Positions 4,414-55,271 of a stretch of DNA of 64,000 nt are shown here, one piece after another (the first letter of the stretch is position 1; each line of letters opens with the position of its first letter). The notes beneath the pieces are model-generated. The model saw nothing but the letters and a program-made list of their open reading frames with translations, did not search any database and had not been told where the DNA came from. The position numbers were made by a program, and so were the translations under genes. This DNA is from Candidatus Micrarchaeia archaeon (lineage in GTDB: Archaea > Micrarchaeota > Micrarchaeia > Anstonellales > Anstonellaceae): contig JBAYHU010000002.1 of the NCBI GenBank assembly GCA_041665945.1, positions 43,350 to 107,349 of the forward strand. Reading direction: 5' to 3'.

Positions 4414-4425
4414 TTCAACCAACCT

Positions 4426-4812
4426 TTAGTAAACGAACGCCAGCAATCTTCCGCCGAGTCCCTTGCCCTTGGCTTCCGTGTGAGTCATGAGCCCCTGCGG
4501 GGTTGACACCACGAACATGCCGAATCCGCTGCCCGGGAGGTACTTGGATTCCCAGTCGTTCCAGTCGCTGCGCTTGACCGCGAAGCGGGGCTTGACAGCT
4601 CCGCACTTGTTTATCTTGCCAAGCAGCTTTATCTTGAAGTAACCGCTCTTGCCATCGTCGACGAACTCGAAGTCGCCGATGTAGCCGGTGCGCTGGAGAA
4701 TCTTCAGGGTCTCCCTGACCAGCTTGCTCGGTTTTACCTCGCATACCTGCTTGCTGAACGTCTCGTGCGTTCTTATCGAGTTCAGCGCGTCTGCGAGCGG
4801 ATCGTTTGCCAT
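4426..4812 (-). CDS. rps8: 30S ribosomal protein S8 (uS8)
   Basis: MANDPLADALNSIRTHE... is S8. The ORF finder extended 42 codons upstream. SD GAGGGATGAT precedes the chosen ATG. Confidence 0.9.
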   Translation of the reverse strand: MANDPLADALNSIRTHETFSKQVCEVKPSKLVRETLKILQRTGYIGDFEFVDDGKSGYFKIKLLGKINKCGAVKPRFAVKRSDWNDWESKYLPGSGFGMFVVSTPQGLMTHTEAKGKGLGGRLLAFVY

Positions 4813-4829
4813 ATCATCCCTCAGTAATA

Positions 4830-5012
4830 TCAATACTTGCGGAAGCCGACTTCCTCGGCGACCTCTCTGAAGCAACGGCGGCATATCCGCAGGTTGTATG
4901 AGCGGATCAGCGCGCGGGCGGATCTGCAGAACCTGCATTTCCTCATGCCCTTGCCCTGATACTTGTGCTCAGGCGGAACGCCGTGCGACTTCTTCTTCTT
5001 TTCATCAGCCAT
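4830..5012 (-). CDS. rps14: 30S ribosomal protein S14 type Z (uS14, zinc-binding)
   Basis: C-x2-C...C-x2-C (CRFCRS...CRRC). About 60 aa. SD AGGAGG precedes the ATG at MADEKKKK. Confidence 0.85.
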   Translation of the reverse strand: MADEKKKKSHGVPPEHKYQGKGMRKCRFCRSARALIRSYNLRICRRCFREVAEEVGFRKY

Positions 5013-5029
5013 GAATATTCCTCCTGAAA

Positions 5030-5539
5030 TCATTGGACGGTAATCGCGAACGTTGATTTCGCGAACTCCATGCCGTCATCCTTTGTGAGGCGGTGCGTCT
5101 TGCCTATCTTGGACTTGCCGCGCCTGCGCCTCACCACGCGGTAGCCGCGGCGGCGAAGAGTTATGCAGACATCGAAGCCCATCATCCCGATTTGCGGGTC
5201 GTACTTCGCCCCGGGGAACTCGATGTATTCGGGGACCCCGAAGGAGAAATTGCCCTCCTTGTCGAACGATTTTACGGGAAGCGTGAATGCCTTGACCTTG
5301 AGCGCTTTTTTGACGAACTCGATTGCGGACGGCCCGCGGAGCGTCGCCTTGGTGCCGATGATGTCCCCCTTCTTTATCTTGAAGACGGGGTTGCGCACCT
5401 TCGCGTGCGTAGGCACGGCCTTGGCTCCCGAGAGCCGCTCAAGAAGCGTCTTGGCGTTCTCAAGCTCCTGCCCGGCCCTTCCAATGCCGATGTTGAGCGT
5501 CACTTTGTCGACGATAACATCCTTCATCTTGTTTTCCAT
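5030..5539 (-). CDS. rpl5: 50S ribosomal protein L5 (uL5)
   Basis: uL5 sequence. Conserved position. SD GGTGA precedes the ATG. Confidence 0.92.
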   Translation of the reverse strand: MENKMKDVIVDKVTLNIGIGRAGQELENAKTLLERLSGAKAVPTHAKVRNPVFKIKKGDIIGTKATLRGPSAIEFVKKALKVKAFTLPVKSFDKEGNFSFGVPEYIEFPGAKYDPQIGMMGFDVCITLRRRGYRVVRRRRGKSKIGKTHRLTKDDGMEFAKSTFAITVQ

Positions 5540-13247: not shown

Positions 13248-14807
13248 ATGGCTTTTCAGATAACTTGCTACGGGAATAAAAAACCATATGAACAGAAAAA
13301 GACACAAATTACAGGGGGGAGAATGATGGTTGACGCTAAGGAAAACAGGGTCTGGCAGTCCGAACGCGAAAAAAACGGGGAAAACCACGCTTGGAAAGAG
13401 ATTCTCGAGAGGAATATCCGCAAGATTGACTGCGAGTTGGATACTGGCGACCCGGCAACCATGCTCGTAATACAGCTCCGGGGTTCCGGCCTCAGCCTGA
13501 TGGATGTATTCGACTCCGATGTACCCCTGAAATGGTACGCGAGGCAGATGTCGATTAATTCCACTGGATATGCAAGGAGAACCGAACGCTTCCTGCAGGC
13601 GCTTGAAGCCACGCGGATGCAGTACGAGATTGCCGTTGAATTGGGAAAAAACCTGAATGAAAGATCATTCTCGGGCGACGAACAGCATTGGATGGGAGTC
13701 GCGCGCGAGTTCGTCCAGTTCGTGGAGATGGGCAGCGGGCAACCTGCCGAGGTTTTCTTCAACCCCATGTCAAGCGTGTTTTCAATCGACAAGATGGAGA
13801 ATTACTTGCGCGTTTTCCGTTTCCAAAACGACATCAAAGGAATCACCTCGTATGAATTCAAGACAGCGGTTGAAAAAACCGATTCGAGGAAAATAAAGGG
13901 AAAGGCGCAGCAAACATGTGTGGAAATTGAAGGGCAGGCAAAAACACCTGCGCGGGTTGATGTGCAGAGTGCGGATGCCGCGCCCGTAGCGAAAAACTTG
14001 GAGTTCGTGAAAAAAATGGAAGCCGCCGGGCTTGGGGCGGAAGCCCGAAAAATCCTCGCTTACCTCGAGAAAAAAAACACTACGCTTGAGAAAATAAGCG
14101 AAATTGAGCTTTGGAGGCAGTCCGTGTCCCTCTTCGAAAAGCCGCGGACCTCGTATGACAGCCAGACAGGCATAGGGATTGCGAACAAAATCATCGAAGC
14201 TGCCGGCAAGCACGCCGCGGCGGTGAGTGCGAAGGAAATGAAGCTGACTGACTGGGAAGCGGCATTCGCATGCTACATGCACGACAACTACCGCAAACGC
14301 GGCACTGCGCTCGAGGCAATCGCACACATCAAGAAAAACGGCATTTCCGAGGAGAAAATCATCTCGCTTGGTGAAAATGAGATAATCGGGCTCGTGGCAT
14401 CGATGCCGTGCGGCTACGGGTCGTCGCGGATGTATGTTGACATCGACTCCGTAAGAAAGCAGCTTCTGCGGGGAATCGAATACGCCAGCAAGGAGGAGCG
14501 AAGCCGGCTGAAGATGGAGCCCGTTGAATACCCGTGCCTTGAGCACAAGACAACCATCAGGTTCGAGGACATCGGCTCCGAGAGGCATTACCGAAGCAGG
14601 GCAGGAACCGATAACGCCGCAGGCACTGAAACGGCAAGCCAGCAATCATCCGGCGCGGGAAACGCGTATTTCGGCGGTTTGCCCAGCGGAACCACGGACG
14701 TACTGGCGCTTGTGCGGCAGAGGGACGCGGCGATAGAGAAAAGGAAAGCGTGGGAGAAGAGCCACCCTGGCGCGAACAGGAATAACGGGAAGCACCGCCG
14801 CCACTGA
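13248..14807 (+). CDS. Hypothetical protein (519 aa), no recognisable domain
   Basis: Long ORF with native codon bias. Possible alternative start at 13326, preceded by AGGGGGGAGA. C-terminal region is G/S/A-rich and basic. Confidence 0.6.
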   Translation: MAFQITCYGNKKPYEQKKTQITGGRMMVDAKENRVWQSEREKNGENHAWKEILERNIRKIDCELDTGDPATMLVIQLRGSGLSLMDVFDSDVPLKWYARQMSINSTGYARRTERFLQALEATRMQYEIAVELGKNLNERSFSGDEQHWMGVAREFVQFVEMGSGQPAEVFFNPMSSVFSIDKMENYLRVFRFQNDIKGITSYEFKTAVEKTDSRKIKGKAQQTCVEIEGQAKTPARVDVQSADAAPVAKNLEFVKKMEAAGLGAEARKILAYLEKKNTTLEKISEIELWRQSVSLFEKPRTSYDSQTGIGIANKIIEAAGKHAAAVSAKEMKLTDWEAAFACYMHDNYRKRGTALEAIAHIKKNGISEEKIISLGENEIIGLVASMPCGYGSSRMYVDIDSVRKQLLRGIEYASKEERSRLKMEPVEYPCLEHKTTIRFEDIGSERHYRSRAGTDNAAGTETASQQSSGAGNAYFGGLPSGTTDVLALVRQRDAAIEKRKAWEKSHPGANRNNGKHRRH

Positions 14808-15382: not shown

Positions 15383-16975
15383 ATGGCGTCGGACGCATAC
15401 AGCGCGCTTGACAAGGCGTGGCGCGGAACATGCAGGGTGCTCTTCGGGCAGGAGGCGGGCGGGCTTTCGGATTGCGCCGGATGGCTTTCGGAATACGCCG
15501 AGGAAATCCGCTCGGAAAAATCCTCGATCAGCGGCAAGGCAGTGACATTCACGCAGAACGAATATTCCGGCAGCGCGCGCTTCATGGCGTTCGACGAAAT
15601 CGGATACGGGAAAAAATTCGCGCCCATCCCCCTCGACGACATGAAGGACATCGACAGCCTCGTGACGGCTGCGAAGGAGAGGCTGCAATACGCCGGAAAC
15701 GTGGTGCTGGGGCACTCAAGCGGCGTTCAGAACTCGAGCAATGTGACGGACAGCCATTATGTGCTTGATTCAACGGCGGTCGCAAGCTCCAAATACGTCG
15801 CGTACTCGAAATACATCAAGGAAAGCGAATACTGCTTCGGGGTTTTCGGCGCGGAAAAGGACGCCTATCTGGTAAAATCCATGGGAAGCTCGCTCAAGCG
15901 GTGCTTCGAATGCCACATGGTCAATTACCTGTCCGACTGCTACTACTGCGCGAAAACGCAGAACTGCCGCGAGTGCTTCTTCTGCTTCGGCATGGAAAAC
16001 GGCAGCTATGCAATCGGCAACACGCCGGTTGGCAAGGAGAAATACCTCGCGCTGAAAGCCAAGCTTCTGCCGGAAATCGCGGAAAAGATACGCAAGGACG
16101 GCAGGATATTCTCGCTTTTGAAGCTCATCGAGGAAGCCGGCGCGCACAAGCCGGATTCGAGGCTGAAGTTCGCAAAGGAGAAGGAAGCGGCATTCGATAT
16201 TGCCCCAGTGCAAAAAGGGTTTGACTCCGCCTGCCGGCTTGTCTTCGGGAAGGAAATGGGGGAGATCGGAAAGTACGAAAAATTCCTCTTCAAGCACGTG
16301 CCGAAAAACGTGGTCGTGCCATCCCCGCTGAGCGGCTCGGCGTCGGTGGTGTGCGGCTACAGGAGGCATGTGCTCAACAAATTCGAAATAGCCAGGAGGC
16401 TTCCGACGGAGGACGAGATAAGAAGCGTCGGGAAGCTTGCCGGAATGGTGAAAACGGACGTGGGCGGGATGGAGCTATCCGCGCTCGCGGAGCAGTTCCA
16501 CCCGATTGCATACACCAACCTCGACAAGGTGGCGGGCAAGTGCACGAATTTCAGGAACTGCGCCGTGATAATCGAGTCGCAGGACTGCCTCGAAGGCTCG
16601 GCTTTCGACTATTCGAAAAAATGCGGCTACAACTTCTGGGCGTCGAACGCCGAGTCCGTGTTCGGCTCCTGCGCCGCGTGGTTCTCCACATTCGTGCTCA
16701 AGAATTTCTATTCCAAGAACATGACGCGCTCGCTCGAATGCGACGGCTGCGAATCCTGCACTGACTTGTATTACTCGCACAACTGCGAGAACGTGCGCGA
16801 CTCGATGTTCTGCTTCAACGCGAAAAACCTCACAAACGCAGTGGGCAACGCGCCGCTTCCTGCGGAGCAATACAGGAAAATGAAAGGCGCGATTGTGGCG
16901 CAGCTCGCCGACGAACTGGAAAAGAAGAAGGATTTGAAGTGGGACATTTTCAATATCGGCGCTATCTCTAAGTGA
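15383..16975 (+). CDS. Cys-rich protein with internally duplicated hexad-repeat domain (530 aa)
   Basis: SD AGGTG. Two homologous halves, each with 6-residue periodic strands (x-S-x-Y-x-x turning into C-x-x-C-x-x) and ending ...MFCFNAKNLTNAVGN / ...FFCFGMENGSYAIGN. About 30 Cys. No signal peptide. No family recognised. Confidence 0.7.
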   Translation: MASDAYSALDKAWRGTCRVLFGQEAGGLSDCAGWLSEYAEEIRSEKSSISGKAVTFTQNEYSGSARFMAFDEIGYGKKFAPIPLDDMKDIDSLVTAAKERLQYAGNVVLGHSSGVQNSSNVTDSHYVLDSTAVASSKYVAYSKYIKESEYCFGVFGAEKDAYLVKSMGSSLKRCFECHMVNYLSDCYYCAKTQNCRECFFCFGMENGSYAIGNTPVGKEKYLALKAKLLPEIAEKIRKDGRIFSLLKLIEEAGAHKPDSRLKFAKEKEAAFDIAPVQKGFDSACRLVFGKEMGEIGKYEKFLFKHVPKNVVVPSPLSGSASVVCGYRRHVLNKFEIARRLPTEDEIRSVGKLAGMVKTDVGGMELSALAEQFHPIAYTNLDKVAGKCTNFRNCAVIIESQDCLEGSAFDYSKKCGYNFWASNAESVFGSCAAWFSTFVLKNFYSKNMTRSLECDGCESCTDLYYSHNCENVRDSMFCFNAKNLTNAVGNAPLPAEQYRKMKGAIVAQLADELEKKKDLKWDIFNIGAISK

Positions 16976-30852: not shown

Positions 30853-30922
30853 AGGATTCCTAATCAAGAAGGGCTCAGGAGAAACGGAATTTAAACGGCA
30901 CAAAGAAACATAGTGATATTTG

Positions 30923-31888
30923 ATGAGCACCGACAGTAAACCAGAACTAGACGCCTATCCCGGGCTTGTCTCAGACACCTTTTCCAAGATTTTTACCGCA
31001 ATGCGGCAATTTCTGGCTAGCAAGAACATCGTAATAACTCCCGAGTTTACCTTTTTCTTCGCACTAGCCGCGTACATCTTTTTAGATAACGACATAACTA
31101 ATATAGCATCCAAACTAAATACGCCTACAATCGTAATACTGACTCTTGTGGGTCTAAACCTGCTGTGGCCCAACCTCCCACAAATAAAACGCACGATTTT
31201 CAGCACTGATGAAGAAAAATTGAATAAAATACTAAAAATATGCAATGAACAGGAAGCGTTAAGCAAGTTGGGTAATTTTTTAGCAAGTAGTGGAACGGAA
31301 CTAAAAATAACCAAAAAAATATTTTCAAGAAGATTTGCAGATAACTATGAAGCATATGATTTATTTTTCAAGAATGTTAGCATGGATGAAAGCGAGGTTA
31401 ACTACCTAATACAGAGAAGAGTCATAAACAAGCCATTTTTCAACGAATTGTTGATGGAGAATTTTTTGGCTAAAACCCCTTGGACGATTTCTTATTCGAC
31501 CTATCAAAAATTAAAGCAGATCATACGAGAAAGAAACTTCTCTAGCCGCATAAGAAAATTATTCAACTACAGATATTGCAGATATAGTGATGGTTCATTA
31601 AAACAAACTGTTTTGATTCATGAACGAGAAAAAGCATATCTGATAGTCAGAAAATTACTTATGATAATGTTGGCAGCATCGGTCGCGGCGATATACATTT
31701 TTGGCGCAGTTGCGATAATTAGCGCACAGACTCCTCAAAATGCAGCCATGACTACCCAAATAGCCAATGTGGTAGAAGCTTCAGCTGCACTTTTTGCAAT
31801 AGGAATCGCTCTGCTGATCATTATTCATATTGTAAATTGGTTCATGAAACAGTTGTTCCTCCAATTCTTAGTTAAAGATACAATTTAG
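30923..31888 (+). CDS. Low-GC (about 35% GC) multi-TM hypothetical protein (321 aa), probable horizontally acquired gene
   Basis: Strong compositional contrast with the roughly 60%-GC flanks, yet the ATG is preceded by the native-type GTGATATTT-g context. About 4 TM helices (2 N-terminal, 2 C-terminal) with a soluble middle domain. No family recognised. Confidence 0.65.
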   Translation: MSTDSKPELDAYPGLVSDTFSKIFTAMRQFLASKNIVITPEFTFFFALAAYIFLDNDITNIASKLNTPTIVILTLVGLNLLWPNLPQIKRTIFSTDEEKLNKILKICNEQEALSKLGNFLASSGTELKITKKIFSRRFADNYEAYDLFFKNVSMDESEVNYLIQRRVINKPFFNELLMENFLAKTPWTISYSTYQKLKQIIRERNFSSRIRKLFNYRYCRYSDGSLKQTVLIHEREKAYLIVRKLLMIMLAASVAAIYIFGAVAIISAQTPQNAAMTTQIANVVEASAALFAIGIALLIIIHIVNWFMKQLFLQFLVKDTI

Positions 31889-53276: not shown

Positions 53277-53864
53277 ATGAACAAGAACGAAACGCGCACG
53301 GAAAACGCTGCAAAACAGGCGGCAAACGACACCGAGCACTCGCAGTCGAACCTCGTGCCCGGGCAGGAGGATGCGGAAAAGGAGCTTTCGGAAACGACTG
53401 ACCGACTGCTTCGCCTGACGGCGGAATTCGACAATTACAAGAAGCGGACGGCAAAGGAGAAGGAGCAGCTCGCGATTCATGCCGAAGGGAAGCTCATGCT
53501 CCAGTTCCTCCCGATTTACGAGGAAATTGCGCTTGCGGAAAAGGAAGCGGCAAAGGTGAAGGAAGAGGCGGTGCGCGAGGGAGTGCTGATGGTGCTCTCC
53601 AAACTGCGCGCGGCGTTCGAGAAGGAAGGCTTGCAGGAAATGAAGCTCGACGGCGAGAAATTCGACCCGTACCGCCACGAAGTCGCGCTTCGCGAGGAGT
53701 CGGACGCGCCGGAAGGCGAGATTGTGAGGGTAATACAGAAAGGGTATTTGTTCAAGGGCGCCGTGCTGCGGCACGCGATTGTTTCCGTTTCAAGCGGAAA
53801 AAAGGCAAGCGGGATGAAAAAAGCGGATGATGCTGACGAAAAAACCGAACCGGAGAAAGAGTGA
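53277..53864 (+). CDS. grpE: Nucleotide exchange factor GrpE
   Basis: ...LLRLTAEFDNYKKRTAKEKEQ... is a GrpE signature. 195 aa. Confidence 0.9.
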   Translation: MNKNETRTENAAKQAANDTEHSQSNLVPGQEDAEKELSETTDRLLRLTAEFDNYKKRTAKEKEQLAIHAEGKLMLQFLPIYEEIALAEKEAAKVKEEAVREGVLMVLSKLRAAFEKEGLQEMKLDGEKFDPYRHEVALREESDAPEGEIVRVIQKGYLFKGAVLRHAIVSVSSGKKASGMKKADDADEKTEPEKE

Positions 53865-54206: not shown

Positions 54207-54219
54207 GAAGGCGATGACC

Positions 54220-55257
54220 ATGGCTATCGATGAAGAAAAAATTCTCAAGAATACCGATGCATACACGGCAGTTATGTTCGGAGGCTTGTTCGGCGCGTTT
54301 GTAGGAATAATTTTTTCTCTGTTCATTCTTCCATTTACACTTAGGGGCACTGATGGAAGAATAATGTATTTTGCAACTGAAACTCCTATGACTTTGCCTT
54401 TGCAATTCGACCAATGGCAGGTGTTTGTACTTGGAATGTTTCTAGTGTTTTTAGTGTTGTTTGCAGTAATGGCTACGATATTTCAAACACTCCTAAGATG
54501 GAAAAGCAATGCGCTTAAGGACGTAAAATTGCCTGCAGAATACATCAAAAAGAACATTTACTGGATAGTTGGCATAGGTCTTTTGGTTTCCTTTGGAATA
54601 GTAGGTTGGGACTCCACAAAAATTATCGCCCTATCTACTGTCGCATACACTCTGATGACGATGTTGTTAGTTCTAGAGAATAAAGCGATGAGAGAAGCGC
54701 AGACAGAACCTAGAATGTCAGTATATCTAAAACCAAGAGAAGAATCGATAAATCTGATGGATTTGAATGTTGAAAATATCGGTATGGGGCCTGCCTTTGA
54801 CATCAATTTTAAGATAGAACCAGATTTTGCCTGCATGGGAACCGGTAATCTTTCAACGATACTAAACAAGATAGCGTATCTCACACCGAAAAATACTAGG
54901 AGCGTATTCCTCACTAGCATGCTGGACAACTTTGAAGAAAAAAAGAAGACAAAACTTCTCGTTAAAGTTAGTTATAAAGATAAAAACGGAAAGCAATACA
55001 CAGAAGAATTTACCTTAGATTTCTCTGAATTCGTAGGACTAACCCAGATAGGGAAACCGCCTCTTCATGAAATAGCAGATAATACTGAGAAAATTAGTAA
55101 GGCAATTGAGGGCATACTCTCGAGTTCTGATAGTTTCAGAAAGCCAGAGATTATCGTAACAACAAGAAAAGAGATTGCAGATGAGCGCCAAAAATTAACA
55201 AAGGAAATGAAAAAGAAATTTGAAGCACAGAAGAAAGAGAAACAAAATAATGTTTGA
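54220..55257 (+). CDS. Low-GC (about 38%) membrane protein (about 345 aa) inserted between grpE and dnaK
   Basis: Marked AT-richness relative to its flanks. Four TM helices, then a K/E-rich soluble domain. Its stop is immediately followed by the dnaK SD. Confidence 0.6.
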
Positions 55258-55271
55258 AAAAGGTGATTGGA

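Follow-up and report, generated by a model that had tools for sequence, protein, structure and literature searches.

What kind of protein is encoded by a cysteine-rich gene that stands amid the ribosomal-protein genes of an archaeon, and do its regularly spaced cysteines hold a metal? The question is raised by an open reading frame (ORF) at positions 15383..16975 on the forward strand of a 64-kb stretch of Candidatus Micrarchaeia DNA (64,000 nucleotides of contig JBAYHU010000002.1, hereafter the window). The original prediction, made from the sequence alone, had described an internally duplicated cytoplasmic protein with six-residue periodicity, and had suggested a beta-solenoid whose ladder of cysteines might bind a metal or an Fe-S cluster. 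Using family-wide searches, structure prediction and coevolution, we examined what the protein is, how it is folded, whether the cysteines are conserved, and with which genes its relatives are found.

An undescribed micrarchaeal protein family

The gene is real, and it belongs to an undescribed family which, within reach of our searches, is confined to Micrarchaeota (DPANN). The ORF starts with ATG and encodes 530 amino acids followed by a stop codon in the ORF list of the window, and an identical protein of 530 amino acids is already on record (P0001, a hypothetical protein from a Candidatus Micrarchaeia metagenome-assembled genome, MAG), so the predicted coding region stands. The window protein had no match in Pfam, NCBIfam, PADLOC or the PDB sequences, a profile built from 44 family members had no match in the PDB, and when Pfam was run on each of the 44 members, only scattered single-member chance matches were obtained. 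Together with a Foldseek search of the predicted structure, these results agree with the earlier failure to recognise the family, and a description of it was not found in the literature either. Its relatives are numerous. A word-indexed search returned 205 homologs, nearly all about 530 amino acids long and none with a Pfam domain, and all those with an organism name come from Micrarchaeota. When 1.84 billion representatives were searched with a profile, 345 matches were obtained at E<=1e-30, and 337 encoding stretches were found in species-representative genomes, where all of the 79 loci kept are titled as Micrarchaeota-type or as unclassified archaeon. No family relative was found in the IMG/VR viral contigs, and a virus or mobile-element origin was set aside for this reason.

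Second, the protein is a fused pair of homologous modules. When residues 1-265 were compared with residues 266-530 by BLASTP, the two halves aligned with 80.5 bits (E 2e-22, 24% identity over 239 amino acids), and a hidden Markov model (HMM) of half length matched family proteins 542 times, or about twice per protein; both results bear out the clear internal duplication claimed at first. Among the segments quoted for that alignment, the second is exact (residues 421-514) and the first is correct from ESEYCFG onwards (147-238), but its opening letters were wrong, since the true start reads SKYIKESEY and not SKESEY. The two halves also occur as separate genes. An N-half gene followed by a C-half gene was found as 22 pairs in 16 loci, in which the first gene ends near HMM position 250 and the second restarts near position 272, that is, in the variable linker. 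Sequencing frameshifts can be ruled out as the origin of these split genes, because in all 22 cases the break lies in the linker and is bounded by proper stop and start codons, which often overlap as ATGA. The location of the splits indicates that the two modules are separable units, which presumably associate.

Within the modules, the six-residue periodicity is readily seen. When the sequence is written in rows of six, column 1 is Ser over residues 112-148 with an aromatic residue at +2, and columns 3 and 6 are Cys over residues 174-201. Cys-Cys spacings of 3, 6, 9 and 12 are over-represented (z 3.6-6.1 against shuffled sequences), and Cys pairs at spacings of 1, 2, 4, 5, 7, 8, 10 and 11 do not occur in the window protein at all.

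Fold and coil length

An AlphaFold2 model based on 149 diverse sequences was obtained with high confidence (predicted local distance difference test score, pLDDT, 93.9; predicted template modelling score, pTM, 0.92), and in this model a head is followed in each half by an extended series of short strands and then by a helix of about 22 residues. An earlier model based on 44 sequences reached a pLDDT of only 57-70 in the repeats and gave no Foldseek match. According to DSSP, the N half of the newer model has nine strands of four residues exactly 6 apart (113-164), followed by strands of seven residues at 169-175, 181-187 and 193-199, spaced by 12. Since a coil of 12 and a coil of 18 residues cannot be distinguished by DSSP alone in the first part of the N beta-helix, mean-field coevolution was applied to the repeat region only, and 267 N-halves and 237 C-halves were analysed separately; in an analysis that pooled both halves over whole modules, terminal-gap and subfamily artefacts prevailed, and a full-length analysis for inter-module contacts was swamped by gap artefacts. 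Pairs at separation 12 made up 32 of the 120 strongest couplings, with a mean z of 1.30 against a background of about 0.1, and a further peak was seen at separation 3. There was no peak at 18 or 24, and separation 18 accounted for only 1 of the 120 top pairs. Many pairs at separation 12 recur independently in both halves, for example 137-149 and 412-424, 173-185 and 449-461, and 114-126 and 389-401.

The peak at separation 12 means that one coil comprises 12 residues with two strands, and together with the model it shows that the predicted fold is a very narrow beta-helix whose coil is neither 6 nor 18 residues long. The beta-solenoid proposed in the original prediction is thus borne out by the regular strands of the model and by the couplings, and the period of six holds for the sequence hexads, but not for the structural repeat, which contains two hexads per coil. 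A repetitive fold was predicted, as the earlier proposal required, and no significant structural neighbour was found when the 149-sequence model was compared with the PDB and BFVD by Foldseek; the best match was GlmU (4ac3; E 0.032, TM 0.11, root-mean-square deviation 9.4 Å). The features of the gene are collected in Table 1. Among the strongly conserved residues of the N head are W13, C17, S47, Y61, K88 and D89 (alignment columns), and the helices of residues 217-252 probably cap the end of the N-module beta-helix in the model, judging from their position only.

Table 1. Features of the family gene and of the ORF directly upstream, in window coordinates
Feature	Position	Strand	Basis or description
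Whole gene, fused pair of two homologous modules (~265 amino acids each)	15383..16975	+	ORF list, 205 homologs of ~530 amino acids, self-alignment
N-module head, residues 1-100	15383..15682	+	Two helices, three short strands, helix; model DSSP, pLDDT 90-98
N-module beta-helix, residues 101-216, ~nine 12-residue coils	15683..16030	+	DSSP, coevolution, column composition
N Cys ladder C174, C177, C186, C189, C195, C198, C201	15902..15985	+	Last three N-module coils
N-module helices, residues 217-252	16031..16138	+	Helices 218-239 and 245-252, pLDDT ~98
Inter-module linker, residues 253-272	16139..16198	+	Highest entropy of the protein, 3.6 bits
C-module head, residues 273-373	16199..16501	+	Homologous to N head, extra helices, less conserved; DSSP, half alignment, entropy
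C-module beta-helix, residues 374-492	16502..16858	+	Separation-12 coevolution found independently in C half; DSSP
Last C-module coils, residues 448-492	16724..16858	+	Most conserved stretch of the family; column entropies
C-terminal long helix, residues 493-516	16859..16930	+	Helix 494-515 in model DSSP
Upstream ORF, 169 amino acids	14866..15375	+	Ends 7 nucleotides before the family gene; hydrophobic segment at residues 1-28

The column composition shows a small conserved residue (Ser, Val, Cys or Ala) at every third position, with the consensus S-x-[YF]-V-x-[DN]-S-x-x-V-x-D in the early coils and x-[RD]-C-[FYM]-[EYF]-[CS]-x-N-x-x-N-[CS] in the late coils. The closest known geometry is that of the antifreeze protein of the beetle Tenebrio molitor (TmAFP, PDB 1EZG; TCTxSxNCxxAx), which also has a coil of 12 residues and carries small inward residues at every third position (PMC8038014). 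The succession of Ser/Val/Ser/Val and then Cys/Ser at every third position of our family fits this published pattern, and by this analogy and from the conservation pattern we infer that the small residues face inward. Accordingly, the inward-facing Ser and Tyr of the original prediction can be kept in part: from the phase of conservation, Ser would be inward or at a corner, but Tyr would lie on the conserved sheet's outer side, next to an inward Val.

In other respects, the family differs from TmAFP, which neither sequence searches nor Foldseek retrieved as a match. The beetle protein is secreted, has a mass of about 9 kDa and is braced by one Cys2-Cys8 disulfide per coil; in contrast, the family proteins have no signal peptide, cysteines at i and i+6 avoid each other, so that this disulfide pattern is not found, and many members lack the cysteines concerned. 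The Thr-x-Thr (Thr-Cys-Thr) ice-binding ladder of TmAFP is not seen in the column composition of the family, nor is a hydrophobic N-terminal segment. The beta-helix is moreover embedded in a module of 265 amino acids with a head and probable capping helices, and this module is duplicated, unlike TmAFP. Ice binding was dropped as a function, because the proteins carry no secretion signal and expose a hypervariable face instead of a regular Thr array. Other solenoids are further away. Hexapeptide-repeat proteins (LpxA, GlmU, gamma-carbonic anhydrase) likewise have a six-residue period, short strands and tight turns, but their coil is triangular with 18 residues and their hexad consensus differs; the Hexapep profile (PF00132) matched neither the window protein at E<=10 nor any of the 44 members at E<=1. 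Bactofilins (coil of about 18 residues) and pentapeptide-repeat proteins (20 residues) differ from the family in coil length, and no Pfam match to them was obtained. Taken together, beta-solenoids are a known class, and beetle antifreeze proteins set a precedent for the 12-residue coil, but the family lacks the defining features of both TmAFP and the hexapeptide-repeat proteins. To the best of our knowledge, this coil geometry has otherwise been seen only in the disulfide-braced beetle antifreeze proteins.

Cysteines and conserved surfaces

The window protein contains 22 Cys (4.2%), compared with 0-1.2% in the neighbouring genes, and CxxC motifs start at residues 174, 186, 195, 198, 453 and 456. 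If this ladder bound a metal or an Fe-S cluster as the function of the protein, conservation of the cysteines among homologs would be the place to look, as had been suggested at the outset. The ladder is not kept. No Cys is invariant among the 267 N-halves and 237 C-halves (the highest values are 89% for C477, 81% for C459, 78% for C468 and 72% for C195), and the ladder positions alternate among Cys, Ser, Ala, Val, Ile and Leu across the halves. In the alignment of 44 sequences, most ladder cysteines are replaced by Ser, Ala or Val in some members, and many members keep the fold signature with Ser, Ala, Val or Leu at these positions. Among 149 full-length members, the number of Cys ranges from 2 to 36 with a median of 21; 15 members have the complete set of C174/177/186/189/198/201, and 22 have none of these six. 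The only zinc-finger or Fe-S profile matched by the window protein in Pfam was zf-CXXC at E 7.2, and a pattern scan found neither the CxxxCxxC motif of radical-SAM proteins nor the DnaJ-type CxxCxGxG motif, as had been stated at first. The proposed lack of a signal peptide was likewise upheld, since the window protein has no transmembrane-like or signal-like hydrophobic segment.

The cysteines also follow a pattern across the coil. At i and i+6, Cys avoids Cys and instead faces Leu or Val, with odds ratios of 0.1-0.2 (186-192, 0.1; 192-198, 0.1; 468-474, 0.2). This avoidance suggests that residue sizes compensate each other within a tight core, and speaks against disulfides of the TmAFP type. 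Because the small residues probably face inward, as described above, we interpret the late-coil cysteines as residues that pack the core and can be exchanged for others, rather than as ligands at a conserved metal or Fe-S site. On the other side, ladder cysteines that are stacked (i, i+12) or adjacent (i, i+3) strongly co-occur, with odds ratios of 24-67 (177-189, 24; 453-456, 40; 450-462, 67), which counts in favour of a metal ladder, as do the six CxxC motifs and the high cysteine content of the family; this co-occurrence may in part reflect shared ancestry. A Cys-rich subset of the family, including the window protein, might hold a metal or disulfides. For the family as a whole, the metal ladder proposed in the original prediction finds no support, and we consider such a function quite unlikely.

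In addition to the core, the two sheets of each beta-helix differ in conservation. In both halves, coil phases 0-6 have mean entropies of about 1.7-2.6 bits, compared with 2.6-3.4 bits for phases 7-11; of the two strands, the one at phases 1-4 is conserved and the one at phases 7-10 hypervariable. The conserved sheet is probably held by packing, and the other is free to vary. The strictest conservation is found near the end of the C module, where, over residues 448-483, the entropy of the columns is 0.1-1.5 bits in nearly every coil phase. Conservation is 90% or higher at each of R449, E452, H466, N467, E469, F476, F478, N479, K481, G488 and N489, and the consensus of residues 448-492 reads RCFEVD..CSD.YF.HNCENV.D.MFCFN.KNLRYAIGN (the window protein has S450 and C453). 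The residues under strict conservation are not cysteines but N213/N489, G212/G488, F200/F476, F202/F478, R173/R449, E176/E452, D185/D461, H466, N467, E469 and K481; most of them may be understood as ladders of Asn, stacks of aromatic residues and ladders of salt bridges in the last coils. From this conservation, the last C-module coils (448-492) are a candidate functional or interface site.

Gene neighbourhoods and possible roles

About half of the 82 related loci contain two or more family copies. The largest array has ten full-length genes in tandem on one contig (L064/L001), several of them with overlapping stop and start codons, and at least 16 family genes were found in one MAG across the four loci examined. 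Paralogs within arrays are 30-56% identical to each other. In a close genome, orthologs are collinear with 66-83% identity and some members are missing; in more distant genomes, one-to-one orthology is lost. This loss indicates that the family evolves by birth and death and not as a fixed set of subunits, with solitary copies scattered beside the arrays and split pairs.

When the flanking ORFs of the 82 loci were clustered and then mapped, a P-loop ATPase of about 600-900 amino acids was found to abut family genes in 23 loci and in L084. It matches TrwB_AAD_bind, DUF87/HerA and FtsK_SpoIIIE around the P-loop only, with further weak matches to mad8 in PADLOC (3e-10), HerA (3e-9), TraD, HerA and EccC in NCBIfam, and HerA and FtsK in the PDB. 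The best solved-structure matches are 8wiv and 8j4u, chains deposited as HerA-type proteins, which we take to come from defence complexes. Most copies have no transmembrane segment, and none is consistent. All named homologs of the ATPase are micrarchaeal, with 46-68% identity to the query, and the source records call them DUF87 proteins or 'type IV secretion system DNA-binding domain' proteins. In some copies (L074 5210-7936, L030 17590-20094 and L046 11588-14299, all on the minus strand) the C-terminus is extended by an acidic tail of 200-300 residues, up to 30% of them Asp+Glu; the tail of the L074 copy ends Lys-rich, and other copies have no such tail. Directly upstream of a family gene there is often a regulator with a helix-turn-helix (HTH) domain, either of the HTH_10 type (13 loci) or an AsnC-type double-HTH protein (12 loci). 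A conserved membrane-protein gene was not found in the family neighbourhoods. In L084, a PIN/VapB toxin-antitoxin pair (4423-5185) and an Mrr-type restriction endonuclease (17528-18859) lie within a few kb of the array.

The window copy is solitary, with no second family gene found in the 64 kb. It is surrounded by an archaeal ribosomal-protein cluster, as judged by eye from the translations, and by the gene for elongation factor 2 (EF-2). The ORF of 169 amino acids directly upstream (Table 1) has no database family match, and its homolog in L005, which is 44% identical, likewise precedes a family gene; this ORF is a possible operon partner of the window copy. Further upstream, an ORF of 519 amino acids (13248-14807, plus strand) gave no family match. 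EF-2 lies at 17039-19231 on the minus strand and also adjoins a family gene in two distant micrarchaeal genomes (L057 11677-13932 and L062 12406-14595), in which its orientation differs and the family genes are only about 36% identical to that of the window, so this adjacency may be coincidence or an old syntenic position.

Several other features of the window were noted. A very Cys-rich ORF of 560 amino acids without a Pfam match (19317-20999, plus strand) has an N-terminal hydrophobic stretch, …EFLLVLGMVLIISVSAVAIVGAW…, which resembles an archaeal pilin-type signal, followed by many module repeats of the C..CC.G..C type, and is probably a surface protein. Two islands of low GC content (30920-31888 and 54214-55257, both plus strand; 0.45-0.46 compared with 0.53-0.60 elsewhere) each contain a single ORF rich in hydrophobic transmembrane-like stretches. 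The second island lies between a GrpE-like ORF (53277-53864) and a DnaK-like ORF (55254-57155), both identified by eye from their translations, and its overlap with the DnaK-like start suggests a foreign insertion into a chaperone operon. No tRNA gene and no Rfam family at the gathering threshold was found in positions 1-64000, and the same stretch carries ribosomal-protein, EF-2, RNA-polymerase-like and DnaK-like genes.

How could such proteins work? We propose that they would be soluble repeat-protein binding modules in which both ends of each beta-helix are capped. The two modules would be kept in a fixed (pseudo)heterodimer by the conserved face and the heads, the variable sheet would recognise diverse partners, and the proteins would act with, or be handled by, the neighbouring hexameric-type ATPase. 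We hold the whole of this proposal, that is, duplicated modules with a 12-residue coil and a diversified binding module working with the ATPase, to be evenly balanced between right and wrong, mainly on the strength of its structural and evolutionary part; the functional part taken alone is less likely than not, and is offered tentatively. As a likely mode of action, it resembles that of leucine-rich-repeat receptors and pentapeptide-repeat proteins, which likewise combine a conserved core with variation on one solenoid sheet and many paralogs, although their repeat lengths and sequences are unrelated to those of the family and no Pfam match connects them. A more far-reaching version, in which a soluble HerA/FtsK-type motor handles diversified beta-helix heterodimers, fused or split, from birth-and-death arrays as a phylum-wide system of Micrarchaeota, is speculative and on the whole unlikely. 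Like the arrays, the HerA-NurA, HerA-Sir2, VirD4/type IV secretion and EccC/type VII secretion neighbourhoods have a P-loop ATPase of this superfamily next to their other components. However, the family proteins are not nucleases or Sir2 and belong to no known substrate family, and the ATPase of the arrays differs from those in known HerA/FtsK/TrwB neighbourhoods in having no consistent transmembrane segments, in matching around the P-loop only, and in being absent from the window.

Several points weigh against the reading we prefer. All results are computational and come from sequences and predicted structure, and the handedness, the buried face and the packing of the modules are deduced from sequence patterns. 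The restriction to Micrarchaeota rests on the top-listed matches, below which there are about 1,000 weaker proteins at E 1e-10 to 1e-3. The window has neither the ATPase nor the HTH_10 and AsnC-type regulators of other family loci, which means that the ATPase is linked to this gene by family and not by locus. Its orientation to the arrays varies (convergent, upstream or downstream), and co-transcription is therefore not general. Finally, the patch of E452, D454, H466, N467, E469 and K481 could be a catalytic or metal site instead of an interface.

Among the other explanations, a system against viruses or in genetic conflict, in which variable sensor or effector proteins act with a HerA-type ATPase as in HerA-Sir2 and HerA-DUF4297, accounts for the mad8 and HerA matches of the ATPase and its similarity to 8wiv and 8j4u, for birth-and-death evolution with a hypervariable face, and for the Mrr and PIN/VapB genes near one array. 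However, in the loci and homologs examined the ATPase is a single well-conserved copy wherever it is present and its named matches are all micrarchaeal, and in this it resembles a core gene more than a patchy defence gene. The family protein has no PADLOC match, and Pfam revealed no effector domain in it, such as a nuclease or NADase. Moreover, tandem arrays of ten paralogs of 530 amino acids are not known to be typical of HerA systems. We therefore regard a role in defence as improbable.

Alternatively, the family proteins could be substrates exported by an unconventional route, with the ATPase as coupling or secretion motor (compare EccC with Esx and PE/PPE proteins) and delivery to the cell surface or to the host cell. 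Matches of the ATPase to TrwB/VirD4, FtsK and EccC models at the P-loop, and the paired N-half and C-half genes and expanded arrays that adjoin it, are consistent with export, as is the life of Micrarchaeota as host-dependent symbionts (PMC8975820). These matches are confined to the P-loop, however, the ATPase has no consistent transmembrane segment, no conserved membrane-protein gene was found in the neighbourhood, and neither a signal peptide nor a recognisable export motif is present in the family, so that we give this explanation little credence.

A fixed hetero-oligomeric structure, such as a cytoskeleton-like assembly or scaffold in which each paralog is a distinct subunit, would explain why many array genes overlap by a few bases at stop and start codons, which suggests coupled translation, and why the paralogs are old and maintained; bactofilins, which are also beta-helical, form polymers. 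However, genomes vary widely in the size and membership of their arrays, orthologs can be paired one to one only among close relatives, the structured elements that flank both ends of each beta-helix argue against end-to-end stacking, and the lack of any Pfam match includes bactofilin, which leaves a scaffold as a poor candidate with less claim than export. A divergent left-handed beta-helix enzyme of the hexapeptide-repeat type, such as an acyltransferase or a gamma-carbonic anhydrase, is highly improbable despite the six-residue sequence period and the fact that the best PDB and BFVD matches in Foldseek are all hexapeptide-repeat proteins (GlmU, LpxD, LpxA, gamma-carbonic anhydrase, PglD), since these matches are not significant (E 0.03-1.7, TM <=0.13 in the top ten, root-mean-square deviation about 10 Å), the coil has 12 and not 18 residues, none of the 44 members matches Hexapep, and the hexad is S-x-x-V-x-x and not [LIV]-G-x-x-[STAV]-x.

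In conclusion, if the predicted fold is correct, the family would provide a cytoplasmic beta-helix with a 12-residue coil that needs no disulfide, which would widen the known builds of the narrowest beta-solenoids, and it would be a natural scaffold with one hypervariable flat face. For annotation, it advises caution, because a striking Cys ladder need not mean a metal site. If the phylum-wide system outlined above existed, it would represent a new route of protein handling or delivery in the interaction of symbiont and host, similar to a secretion ATPase with paired and expanded substrates, and built from unrelated parts. Most lineage-specific protein families of DPANN archaea have no predicted function (PMC8204110). 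DPANN genomes are tiny, and at least 16 genes of one family in a single MAG are a large investment. As the arrays adjoin an ATPase that is conserved in Micrarchaeota, the family likely matters for the way of life of these symbionts.

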